IMG/VR virus record: IMGVR_UViG_3300025117_001212
Source of the DNA: a virus
DNA length: 64,000 nt
Reading direction: 5' to 3' (one strand)
Part shown: positions 6,512 through 23,733 of the stretch, piece after piece
How positions within the stretch are numbered: the first letter of the stretch is position 1
How the letters are laid out: each line of letters starts with the position of its first letter
Made by a program: the position numbers and the translations under genes
Notes under the pieces: model-generated
Databases searched by the model: none
Seen by the model: only the letters and a program-made list of their open reading frames with translations
Told to the model about the DNA's origin: nothing

Positions 6512-6542
6512 AAAAAAAGGGAGGGTCTTGGTGACCCTCCCT
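6512..6542 (-). terminator. intrinsic terminator
   Basis: 10-bp stem AGGGAGGGTC/GACCCTCCCT then T-run on minus strand, right after the stop at 6551. Confidence 0.85.
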
Positions 6543-20175: not shown

Positions 20176-20191
20176 AATAAATCCTTAATAG

Positions 20192-20326
20192 TCAAAAAAG
20201 AGGCTCTTTGCAAGAATGCTCATCAAGCAGGAGGTGGTAGTGATGAGTTCTATGTCAAAGAGCCTCTTAGGGTCGCAACTGAGAGAAAGGAGGTGAAACC
20301 TCTAGTTGCTACATGTGTACCTTTAC
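20192..20326 (-). ncRNA. candidate small RNA with two anti-Shine-Dalgarno loops
   Basis: promoter 20333-20361; loops UUUCACCUCCUUU and CUACCACCUCCUGCU; 13-bp terminal stem plus U-run. Confidence 0.6.
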
Positions 20327-20332
20327 ACCAAT

Positions 20333-20361
20333 ATTATACAATAAGCAATAAGCAATTGCAA
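20333..20361 (-). promoter_or_regulatory. sigma70-type promoter heading the sRNA and MNxY array
   Basis: TTGCAA-N17-TATAAT. Confidence 0.8.
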
Positions 20362-20387
20362 GCAAATAATAGGTTTTTCTGCATAAA

Positions 20388-20771
20388 TTATTTTCTTCTT
20401 TTCCTATAGATTTCTCCTCTATACTTTGATCCAAAATGTTTATGAAAATAATTAGCTAACAATACTCTATGGCAAAACTTGTCTGCACCACAATAACAAG
20501 TAAAAACAACTCTTGGCATCTGTATAACATATCTCCAAATTTCTCTATTCTTTCTATAGGATTCATCCATCATTTGATTATATTTTTCAATATATCTAGG
20601 AATATAAGTTTTCGGGTCATTGGCTTTCTTTAAAGCCATAACCATTTCCCAAGTAGGTGCAAAAATTCTTCCTATTTCATGCTTCCCTCTAATTGTGATA
20701 TCAAGTCTATCAAGATCATCAATAAAGTAGTTGGCTGTCCATATCTCTCCACTATATCTTTTCTTTTTCAT
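20388..20771 (-). CDS. DUF488-like protein
   Basis: FAPTWEMV ... YIEKYNQMM ... FTCYC....CHR.LLA. Confidence 0.7.
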   Translation of the reverse strand: MKKKRYSGEIWTANYFIDDLDRLDITIRGKHEIGRIFAPTWEMVMALKKANDPKTYIPRYIEKYNQMMDESYRKNREIWRYVIQMPRVVFTCYCGADKFCHRVLLANYFHKHFGSKYRGEIYRKRRK

Positions 20772-20901
20772 AATCAATTCCTGCTATTTAATTGTTAAAA
20801 ACTTAACTTACTTAGTGATTGTTAAGATTTCAATGATTTTAAGATTCATGTGACAGAAAAAAACAAAGTGTTAGTACCGAATAAAAGAAAGGTTTTTAAT
20901 T

Positions 20902-20956
20902 GCAATGAGCCTCCGGCTCATTGCCTCATGATGCGATCTGAGATCGCATCATGAGG
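20902..20956. repeat. two abutting perfect inverted repeats
   Basis: GCAATGAGCC-TCC-GGCTCATTGC and CCTCATGATGCGATCT-G-AGATCGCATCATGAGG. Confidence 0.9.
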
Positions 20957-21549
20957 ATAGAAAAGACTTCAGATTTAGATACTTTAATTTTAGAAGTGAT
21001 TTAAATTATAGAAAAAAGATCAGAGAGAAGCTTTCTTTGTACTTCCAACCTGCCTCGACCCGAGGTCTCGGCAGACCCCCCCTTCCCCCCACGCCCGAAC
21101 CGCTATGGTTTTTCTTTAGTTCCCTGTAACCGGACTTGGCTTCAATTTGCACGTCCACCGAAGTGCTTTACAGGGTTCTCCGCAGATATCTAAAGAAAAT
21201 TTAAAAGACGATATTAATTTTCGTTTCTAGCACTCTTAAAGAGCTGTCAGCGACATTGATAAGAAACGGTTTAAAAAATATCGTACACAGTCGCTATTTA
21301 ACACGGCCCGAGAAATCGTCTGAATTAACGGACGCCTTCTTAAGTTAGGGAGAAGAGGAGGAATCTATGCACCCCCCTTGGTTTTTCTGATTTAATACTT
21401 CACTAAGAAGCTGTTTTTTCAAGACACTAATCAGAAAACATATGGCTGCATAGAGAGCATCAAGGCTCTAATGTAACCCTTTGATGCTAAACACTAGGTG
21501 GCGTGTTACTTGATATAGAGACGCATTGCTAGTGCTACCCCATACTTTT

Positions 21550-21578
21550 ATTATACAATTAAATTTGTCAAATTGCAT
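21550..21578 (-). promoter_or_regulatory. putative promoter firing into the non-coding structured region
   Basis: ATGCAA-N17-TATAAT. Confidence 0.55.
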
Positions 21579-21587
21579 TATAAAAAT

Positions 21588-21869
21588 TTAAACTTCCATA
21601 TCCTTGTACTGTTTTAGTTGTAAAATGAGCTTATCATAAACACGAGCCTTTAACCAGTCAGGAACTGTAATTTTATCAATAACAATATCGCCATCAATAG
21701 TGATGTCAATATCAAAAGCATCTAAATCTAGTTTAATTTCAGGTATATTATTACCTCTTATATCTATAGATAAATTTGTAATTCCTAAGTCTTTTGTAAG
21801 ATCTTTTCCATTTACCTCAAATTTAAATTCAAGATCTTTTTGCTTATTAATAATTCTAATAGATTCCAT
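21588..21869 (-). CDS. hypothetical protein
   Basis: SD GGAGGT before MESIRII. Confidence 0.7.
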   Translation of the reverse strand: MESIRIINKQKDLEFKFEVNGKDLTKDLGITNLSIDIRGNNIPEIKLDLDAFDIDITIDGDIVIDKITVPDWLKARVYDKLILQLKQYKDMEV

Positions 21870-21871
21870 AA

Positions 21872-22363
21872 TTACCTCCATGGCACGGTAGGGCCTAGTT
21901 GATTTTGATAATGACCAGTTTTTGAATAGTCAACTCCAGCTTCTTCTGCATCAGCTAACACTAGTTGTATTAATCTTAAACCTGGAACTAAGAATCTGGG
22001 AAAAGGCCAATGATTGATGATTTCAAGAGTCCATTGCCCATGAAATCCAGGATCACCATAGCCTGCATGTAGATGTTCTAGCCCTTGTCTTCCGACTGTT
22101 GATTTTAAAAACAACATTGCAATAGCATTAGTAGGTATTTTTGTAAATTCTAGGGTATGCAAGAGTACAATTTCACCGCATTTTATAGTCCATGGCGTAA
22201 TGTTCATATCTATAGGATCTGACCACGTATTGTCTTCTATTGGGACGCGAATGAAACTTCCAATTTTTAGATCTATTGATGCCGGATTAATTAGTTTAGG
22301 ATCAAAAGGTTCAACTCCACCATTTTCTGCCCATTGCGTTAGTCTTTTGTCATTCCAAATCAT
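21872..22363 (-). CDS. dcd: dCTP deaminase (trimeric dUTPase-like superfamily)
   Basis: INPASIDL, KSTVGRQGL, AGYGDPGFHGQWTLEI, RLIQLV. Confidence 0.85.
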   Translation of the reverse strand: MIWNDKRLTQWAENGGVEPFDPKLINPASIDLKIGSFIRVPIEDNTWSDPIDMNITPWTIKCGEIVLLHTLEFTKIPTNAIAMLFLKSTVGRQGLEHLHAGYGDPGFHGQWTLEIINHWPFPRFLVPGLRLIQLVLADAEEAGVDYSKTGHYQNQLGPTVPWR

Positions 22364-22375
22364 AGTTGCCTCCTG

Positions 22376-22558
22376 TTAGTTGATGATTGATAATTTCCAT
22401 TGTTTTTGTTTGCAATAGATAGCTATTTCGAATAAGCTCCAATTTTTCATATATTTTAAAATAGGAGCTGTTTTTGTTAATTTGTTATTGATGTTATTTT
22501 TACAAATTCCTGCAACAAAATGAGGTGCTACAATTCTAATAACTGTAATTTTCTTCAT
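22376..22558 (-). CDS. conserved phage hypothetical protein
   Basis: probable start MKKITV at 22558; IVAPHFVAG ... APILKYM ... YCKQKQW. Confidence 0.7.
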   Translation of the reverse strand: MKKITVIRIVAPHFVAGICKNNINNKLTKTAPILKYMKNWSLFEIAIYCKQKQWKLSIIN

Positions 22559-22571
22559 CTGATTACCCAAT

Positions 22572-22663
22572 AAATGGAAAGAGCCCCAAGAGGTGGGGAG
22601 TCTCTTGGGGCTCTTAAGGAGGAGAGAAGCATGGCGTCGAAGGAAAACGAAACAACCATCTCT
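22572..22663 (-). ncRNA. candidate small RNA with anti-SD tract and C-rich loop
   Basis: promoter 22670-22698; CUUCUCUCCUCCUU then 14-bp stem with loop ACUCCCCAC. Confidence 0.45.
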
Positions 22664-22669
22664 ACTGAT

Positions 22670-22698
22670 ATTATACAACTGATTATTTAACTTTGCAA
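22670..22698 (-). promoter_or_regulatory. sigma70-type promoter
   Basis: TTGCAA-N17-TATAAT overlapping the exonuclease stop. Confidence 0.75.
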
Positions 22699-23613
22699 TA
22701 ACTTTTTTTCTAGTTTATCAAACATTTTAGCTTGTTGTTTTGCCAATTTAGGAAGTAGCAATAGAAACCTTGGTTTTAGAAGAGATTCTGCTTCTATAAA
22801 TTCTAGCATATTTTCTGCAGATACTTCATTATCACTTTTATGCAGTTTTAGTTTTTTAGGATTAAGTATTTTAATCAGATAGGCTGTTTTTTCTAAAGTA
22901 TCATATCCTCCTTTCTCTAATTTAGATGATATATTTTCTGGGAGTTCACTTTTATTATTAAATACAGCTTCTGCTGATCCAAATGTTCTTATAAGATCAA
23001 CTGCTGTTTTAAATCCTATACCTTTAAATCCTTTGACTTTGTCAGTTGTACACCCTGACAGTTTTTTGGCTTCAGTAAATGTTTTACTGTCTATACCATC
23101 AAGTTTAAGATCATCATGGGTAAATTTGATCAAACCTTCTCTACCATTTTTTAGAATAGATATTTTGTCACTTAGTAATGAATTATAATCGTTATCGTTT
23201 GCAAGAATTGTTATTTCATCAAACTTTTTGCCAATTCTTTTAATAACTGATCTGCAAACATCTTCAGCCTCATATCCTTTAGAATAAAAGCATGGTATAT
23301 TTAGAGAATTCGCTAAGATTTTAATCATGTCCATTTCTCTAAATAAGTTTTCGGAATCTTTTTTATCTCTTTTCCTACCTTCTTTATAATCTGGAAATTT
23401 TAATTTCTTTTTATATGGTGGAGTATCCCAAGTCGTAATATAGAAAGAATACTCATTACGTTCTGCCATATAAATAATGGCTTTTGCAAAGCTGAAAACA
23501 GCACTTGTGGTAAGTTCGGTACCATTTTCTAAAGTAATGGTAAGTGGCCTTTTTTTAAAGGCGAAAAATTCGCGATATGTTATGCTAGATCCGTCGATAA
23601 TTAGTAAATTCAT
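22687..23613 (-). CDS. 5'-3' exonuclease (Pol I N-terminal/FEN/T4 RNase H-like)
   Basis: LLIIDGSS, YKEGRK, GYEAEDV, DNDY, H3TH GCTTDKVKGFKGIGFKTA. Confidence 0.9.
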   Translation of the reverse strand: MNLLIIDGSSITYREFFAFKKRPLTITLENGTELTTSAVFSFAKAIIYMAERNEYSFYITTWDTPPYKKKLKFPDYKEGRKRDKKDSENLFREMDMIKILANSLNIPCFYSKGYEAEDVCRSVIKRIGKKFDEITILANDNDYNSLLSDKISILKNGREGLIKFTHDDLKLDGIDSKTFTEAKKLSGCTTDKVKGFKGIGFKTAVDLIRTFGSAEAVFNNKSELPENISSKLEKGGYDTLEKTAYLIKILNPKKLKLHKSDNEVSAENMLEFIEAESLLKPRFLLLLPKLAKQQAKMFDKLEKKLLQS

Positions 23614-23647
23614 TTAATTGCCCTCGCTAAGTTTTGTTACTACCAAC

Positions 23648-23733
23648 ATTATACAATAAAATTACAAGTGATGCAAGGGTAAAAACACATTTTTCATTTT
23701 CTTGTTGTAAAGTTTGGAGGCGTGTTGTATAAT
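23648..23733. promoter_or_regulatory. divergent sigma70 promoter pair separating the two arms
   Basis: minus TTGCAT-N17-TATAAT (23648-23676); plus TTGTAA-N17-TATAAT (23705-23733). Confidence 0.8.

Follow-up and report, generated by a model that had tools for sequence, protein, structure and literature searches.

A putative promoter-led RNA element with exposed anti-Shine-Dalgarno motifs in an orphan phage genome: a candidate small regulatory RNA or 5′ leader

At lambda pR′, which yields the short transcript known as 6S RNA, a promoter, a short leader, a hairpin terminator, and genes follow one another, and Q acts by antitermination. The small cis-antisense RNA sar of phage P22 is complementary to a start region for translation on the opposite strand, and both sar and lambda OOP act on functional opposite-strand genes. 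Sar has been listed as inhibiting antirepression (PMC5415839). LhrC of Listeria monocytogenes carries three UCCC sites, one in a loop, one in a single strand before the terminator, and one in the terminator loop, and these sites bind the G-rich region upstream of the start codon (PMC4132741). By pairing with G-rich Shine-Dalgarno regions, such motifs block initiation. RoxS likewise uses C-rich regions (PMC5419742).

We describe a phage locus that shares features with these systems. The putative RNA resembles LhrC1-5 and the other UCCC or C-rich small RNAs of low-GC Gram-positive bacteria (RsaE/RoxS, RNAIII, and FsrA) in being about 100 nt long and in having its own promoter, a property of C-rich anti-Shine-Dalgarno (anti-SD) small RNAs that is a predicted one here. 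It shares with RNAs of the LhrC type redundant C-rich motifs, both in a single strand ahead of the terminator hairpin and in its loop. However, it is phage encoded, it carries a longer copy of the 16S tail (CCUCCUU) and not UCCC alone, its terminator tail is weak, and a gene follows directly, so it may mainly be a leader; there is no sequence or covariance-model similarity between it and the LhrC type. Like sar and OOP, it would be a small promoter-led phage RNA, and complementarity to a start region is a likeness to sar only; unlike the genes on which sar and OOP act, the open reading frame (ORF) opposite the element gives no hint of being a gene. Promoter, short leader RNA, hairpin, and genes follow one another as at lambda pR′, from which the locus differs in its weak hairpin tail and in that neither an antiterminator nor a recognition site was identified among the neighboring genes examined. 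The element is a real, nonrandom element at the RNA level. We tentatively favor the reading that it is a minus-strand regulatory RNA of about 96 nt, or a 5′ leader, with C-rich motifs that occlude Shine-Dalgarno (SD) sequences.

The window that we analyzed is a stretch of 64,000 nucleotides, the reverse strand of bases 5175 to 69174 of a 114.6-kb IMG/VR phage record that is estimated to be 82% complete. The genome has a G+C content of 34%, the proteins of the phage have only distant relatives, and a comparison with 50,697 deposited phages found no near match to the genome. From 23613 the genes on the minus strand point leftward, and from 23784 those on the plus strand point rightward. Upstream of the element is a gene for a 308-amino-acid (aa) 5′-3′ exonuclease/flap endonuclease (22687 to 23613, minus strand; Pfam PF02739 and PF01367), and on the other side is an orphan gene of 60 aa (orf60; 22376 to 22558, minus strand), which has a weak ribosome-binding site and is the first gene after the leader. 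These are followed on the minus strand by a 163-aa dCTP-deaminase-like gene with a strong ribosome-binding site (21872 to 22363; Pfam PF22769, PHROG 1663) and a 97-aa ORF (orf97).

A minus-strand promoter of the form TTGCAA-N17-TATAAT, which the first-pass annotation had pointed out, is present ahead of the element. Its −35 hexamer TTGCAA (22693 to 22698, minus strand) lies inside the last codons of the flap-endonuclease gene, and a spacer of 17 nt separates it from TATAAT (22675 to 22670), which forms part of a −10 element, TTGTATAAT (22670 to 22678, minus strand), common to a family of promoters in this phage. Transcription is predicted to start at A22663 on the minus strand, and the region around this site matches the terS promoter. 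With at most one mismatch allowed, the pattern TGCAA-N14-TTGTATAAT has 5 matches in the window versus 0.06 expected from shuffled sequences. The leftward promoters of the family (23675, 22697, 21577, and 20360) are spaced by about 1 to 1.2 kb, and the fifth promoter points rightward, before terS. The 9-mer TTGTATAAT occurs eight times in the whole genome, seven times in noncoding DNA, and the closest relative that we found, whose large terminase is 54% identical, has the same −10 9-mer upstream of its terS.

All five promoters of the family fall within 3.4 kb, between 20.3 and 23.7 kb (window positions 20333 to 23733), and this cluster looks like the main control region of the phage. A fourth exact copy of the promoter pattern was detected beyond the window (window-relative positions −45040 to −45417), upstream of an ORF whose first residues appear, by eye, to be similar to those of TnpB/IS605 OrfB; the record ends within this ORF. 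We also detected a promoter-like site inside orf60 (22453 to 22480, minus strand; 10 of 12 consensus matches), which could yield a message for the deaminase-like gene without the anti-SD leader.

The putative RNA begins with a weakly structured 5′ domain (22663 to 22630, minus strand), in which a CAU (22633 to 22631) is situated 8 nt 5′ of CCUCC. Next comes a 14-nt polypyrimidine tract (22629 to 22616, minus strand) that contains CCUCCUU, an anti-SD sequence resembling the 3′ tail of 16S rRNA (CCUCC at 22622 to 22618). The tract adjoins a hairpin (22615 to 22579, minus strand) with the perfect 14-bp stem (22615 to 22602 with 22592 to 22579) and C-rich loop that had been noted before; the loop is 9 nt long (22593 to 22601) and includes UCCCC. 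The predicted fold has a free energy of −36.9 kcal/mol (z = −4.8), and none of 200 shuffled sequences folded as well. The hairpin, at about −25 kcal/mol, ranks first for stability among simple hairpins in the whole 114.6-kb genome. The ensemble predicted for the short RNA leaves CCUCCUU and the UCCCC loop unpaired, each at a probability of about 0.99, so that at least two C-rich motifs fall in a loop or single strand, as in C-rich anti-SD small RNAs. The earlier proposal of a promoter-led, structured minus-strand RNA is very plausible.

An 80-nt window at the element has a G+C content of 55%, versus 34% for the genome, and is among the top three noncoding G+C peaks. We considered the other G+C-rich noncoding windows as further members and rejected them; they look like small genes missed by a crude gene caller.

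Behind the hairpin is an interrupted, U-rich tail (22578 to 22566, minus strand). As an intrinsic terminator, the structure combines a very stable stem with a weak tail, with only 4 U's in its first 8 nt, whereas the canonical terminators of this phage have runs of 6 to 7 T's. The hairpin starts 72 nt past the stop codon of the upstream gene, and orf60 begins 17 nt past the hairpin. The first-pass annotation overlooked both the weak U-tail and the 60-aa gene that follows. With so weak a U-tail, little of the product may be a free small RNA; because orf60 also begins so close to the hairpin, we regard the element as no less a 5′ leader than a free small RNA.

On the sense strand of the genome, GGAGG occurs at 137 sites versus 32 for CCUCC, which indicates that this phage uses strong ribosome-binding sites. 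Only 5 of the 32 CCUCC sites lie outside genes. One of these is in a terminator stem, and the other four are in three structured RNAs that follow the promoters at 20360, 21577, and 22697 (20.2 to 22.7 kb). Apart from the one terminator, the long noncoding polypyrimidine tracts with CCUCC on the sense strand are all in these three RNAs. A CAU is found 5 to 8 nt upstream of the tract in 3 of the 4 noncoding tracts versus 1 of the 28 other sites (Fisher p of about 0.003 for a comparison chosen post hoc). At a local C content of about 32%, a single CCUCC per 100 nt or so is by itself nothing unusual.

A sister element, E1 (20190 to 20361, minus strand), has the same promoter type, two anti-SD loops, and a canonical terminator, which precedes an array of mini-protein genes. 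The first-pass annotation had remarked that the terminal stems of both RNAs begin with AAGAG. This likeness holds and widens to a shared layout: the two RNAs can be aligned starting at the promoter, and they have in common the promoter type, the placement of the anti-SD tract (40 and 48 nt from the −10 element in the 20.2-kb and 22.6-kb RNAs, respectively), the beginning of the terminal hairpin (identity at 11 of 16 bases), and a C-rich terminal loop. They differ in that E1 has both anti-SD copies in hairpin loops and a run of six T's at its end, whereas in the 22.6-kb RNA the tract is single-stranded beside the hairpin and the tail is weak. The CU motif that the leaders share is permuted between them, and its order is not conserved. 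A third promoter of the same type (21578 to 21550) precedes a noncoding RNA (21347 to 21578, minus strand) with a 17-nt CU tract that contains CCUCC (21363 to 21347).

The element is most likely the second, perhaps the third, of a set of putative anti-SD RNAs in this phage. The idea that it is a second member of a set of small RNAs directed against translation initiation regions (TIRs) survives insofar as the 20.2-kb RNA is its sister; searches of the phage, IMG/VR, and about 400 Bacillota genomes turned up no matching target in trans. Downstream of the middle promoter is a stretch of about 0.8 kb devoid of ORFs (window positions 20778 to 21587), which includes a perfect 15-bp palindrome (20924 to 20956) and a second hairpin (20902 to 20924) and for which we found no Rfam match. 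In the exonuclease message, 12 nt (window positions 22907 to 22918, minus strand) form an exact complement to the CU tract of the 20.2-kb RNA, with about one such match expected by chance.

In the reading that we tentatively favor, a σ70-type phage promoter starts a minus-strand transcript near 22663. The first 96 nt or so of this transcript would fold with the CCUCCUU tract and the UCCCC loop exposed and would end in the very stable hairpin with its weak U-tail. If transcription stops at the hairpin, the product would be a free small RNA that could act in trans, as LhrC, RsaE, and RoxS do, by occluding strong ribosome-binding sites. If polymerase reads through, the tract in the 5′ leader would mask the ribosome-binding site of the deaminase-like gene, and ribosomes translating the 60-aa gene would open the masked site. 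The same hairpin may also end the upstream flap-endonuclease message or stabilize its 3′ end. The weak tail and the adjoining gene incline us toward a leader, and the sister RNA and the C-rich terminator loop toward a free RNA; termination, like transcription and all of the base pairing, is inferred here from sequence features.

The predicted cis partner of the leader CCUCCU in read-through mRNA is the ribosome-binding site of the dCTP-deaminase-like gene (22364 to 22376, minus strand). In the computed fold of a read-through transcript from 22663 to 22330, CCUCCU pairs with the AGGAGG of the deaminase-like gene at a probability of about 0.88. When the leader tract was changed or absent in silico, the probability that the deaminase SD sequence is unpaired rose from about 0.09 to 0.5 to 0.6. 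This long-range helix contributes no more than about 1.6 kcal/mol; among the other ribosome-binding sites of the phage, 15% are equally masked in silico.

We detected no outstanding duplex in trans between the RNA and the start regions of the phage; the best had an energy of −32.0 kcal/mol versus −32.1 ± 2.8 kcal/mol for shuffled queries. Averaged over all phage start regions, the duplex energy was slightly better than for shuffles (−17.0 versus −15.7 ± 0.65). The first-pass annotation had proposed a search for complementary sites in candidate host genomes and in the rest of the phage. No extended complementary stretch was found elsewhere in the phage or in IMG/VR, and there was no match with at most three mismatches in 5 named and about 400 sampled Bacillota genomes. 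We take these results as weak negative evidence.

Should the RNA exist and target ribosome-binding sites, the phage would encode a small battery of anti-SD RNAs expressed from its strongest promoters, and such action could be a cheap way to tune its own expression or to blunt host translation. A bolder hypothesis is that the three promoter-led RNAs (20.2, 21.4, and 22.6 kb), with their copies of the 16S tail, three of four of which have CAU, the initiator-tRNA anticodon, at start-codon spacing, are generic mimics of the 30S initiation site that bind many start regions. We consider this a long shot; if it were true, the phage could throttle or reprogram translation early in infection.

An alternative hypothesis, which we judge unlikely but the most serious of those considered, is that the locus is plain operon punctuation. 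The hairpin would end or stabilize the flap-endonuclease message and stabilize the following message at its 5′ end; the promoter would drive orf60, the deaminase-like gene, and orf97; and the CU tract and its mirror-image site would have no function. The spacing of the hairpin between the upstream stop codon (72 nt) and orf60 (17 nt) suits this explanation, as do the need of the downstream genes for a promoter, the local C-richness that makes a CCUCC unsurprising, and the failure to find a specific target in the phage, IMG/VR, or the sampled Bacillota. However, punctuation would not explain why the long noncoding CU tracts with CCUCC, bar one terminator stem, are all behind three promoters of the same type. 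The 9-nt C-rich loop is also unlike that of the short-looped canonical terminator at 6518 to 6542, and the promoter is upstream of the hairpin and not after it. If the element proves to be only a leader with a hairpin, what is gained is a clean map of the promoter family and early control region of an orphan phage. Another alternative is an attenuator of the lambda pR′ kind, in which initiation is constant, most RNAs end at the hairpin, and a phage factor able to recognize features shared by the leaders brings about timed read-through. Promoter, short leader, hairpin, and genes are in the right order, the leaders have motifs in common, and the arrangement recurs in a stronger form at 20.2 kb, with a canonical terminator. 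We nevertheless find this control improbable: no antiterminator gene and no nut-, put-, or qut-like element was identified among the neighboring genes examined, the U-tail at the element is weak, and the shared CU motif is permuted from leader to leader.

Other explanations invoke coding capacity at the locus. A 100-codon minus-strand ORF opens at a TTG within the −10 box and extends through the hairpin. Over the first 40 codons the score is −0.22 bits per codon, whereas the last 60, which start at ATG 22558 and constitute orf60, score +0.174, compared with a mean codon score of 0.236 ± 0.18 for small genes of this phage; only 0.7% of wrong-frame 60-codon segments (stop codons included) reach +0.174. 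These scores indicate that the hairpin region is noncoding and that a real 60-aa gene starts at 22558, and on them we rejected the 100-codon ORF as a gene. The product of orf60 was called as a 60-aa protein on four contigs, and a search for homologues found none.

On the plus strand, the strong SD sequence, ATG, and 19-aa ORF that the first-pass annotation had described as a complete TIR are present as sequence: AAGGAGG (22616 to 22622) is followed after 8 nt by ATG (22631) and a 19-codon ORF, which together span 22616 to 22690. The stop codon of this ORF (22688 to 22690) overlaps that of the 308-aa gene, and an in-frame ATG at 22574 would extend it to 38 aa. The codon score of the 19-codon ORF is 3.3 bits in all, from an ORF too short to judge. 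Most simply, the apparent initiation region is the mirror image of an anti-SD sequence plus CAU on the other strand, and the ORF is probably not a gene. The lack of any relationship among the mirror-image ORFs at the three sites, which have 17, 7, and 19 codons, speaks against peptides and in favor of a design at the RNA level. The minus strand appears to be the functional one because it has a promoter and a U-rich, interrupted tail; the plus strand has no promoter of the phage family and no U-tail, and its transcript would be antisense to the exonuclease gene.

A cis-antisense pair, in which a plus-strand message for the 19-aa (or 38-aa) peptide is repressed by the minus-strand RNA in the style of a type I toxin-antitoxin system or of P22 sar/ant, is in our estimation very unlikely. 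It would take advantage of a near-ideal start region, which the minus-strand RNA would span entirely, and the 38-aa form is listed by the IMG gene caller on four contigs. But no promoter of the phage family was found on the plus strand near the ORF, and the upstream promoter-like sites are weak, one with 9 of 12 consensus matches at 22366 to 22394 and one, read by eye, a TG-extended −10 look-alike at about 22526 to 22534. No terminator follows the ORF, which runs antisense into the exonuclease gene, and the ORFs at the two other mirror-image sites do not resemble it. The 19-aa peptide is polar, with a hydrophobic end of only six residues and no membrane-spanning stretch, and neither it nor the 38-aa form has a protein-family match. 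A type I toxin-antitoxin pair, as suggested earlier, was therefore rejected: the peptide is not hydrophobic, no toxin promoter was found, and the antisense overlap is a matter of geometry only. No Rfam family matched the element at its gathering score, and relaxed thresholds gave only chance-level matches. Among these was a full-length plus-strand match to Clostridiales-2 (RF02937) at 21.9 bits, far short of the gathering score of 58.6, with an E value of 0.005 for a 301-nt search that would become about 1 for the whole window. The match shares with the family one hairpin, UUAAGGAGG (the AAGGAGG box), and the 8-mer GUCGAAGG, which also occurs often where ordinary genes begin with Met-Ser-Lys-Glu. 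Genuine members that we retrieved from Clostridia occur in multiple copies and have three hairpins followed by a terminator, whereas here hairpins 2 and 3, after the AAGGAGG box, are absent. We rejected membership in RF02937 and rate its chances as close to nil.

In the family itself, at least 25 of the 120 RF02937 stretches fetched came from one Clostridiaceae metagenome-assembled genome (MAG), one locus carried two copies, and several copies came from Acidaminobacter MAGs.

An identical flap-endonuclease protein is encoded on 13 contigs, and a relative with 38% identity was found on a 1.9-kb contig. The exonuclease and the deaminase, each used alone to scan IMG/VR, gave no hits, patterns for the hairpin and start region were absent from IMG/VR, and a metagenome scan found only exonucleases of at most 32% identity. 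In distant relatives reached through the large terminase, the order of exonuclease, terS, and terL is kept, other genes follow the exonuclease, and no comparable CU tract was detected. Several IMG/VR contigs, some of them 110 to 148 kb long, keep the divergent arrangement of the exonuclease (minus strand) and terS plus terL (plus strand). The large terminases of these contigs are 37 to 39% identical, and some of the genes after the exonuclease appear by eye to be peptidase- or amidase-like.
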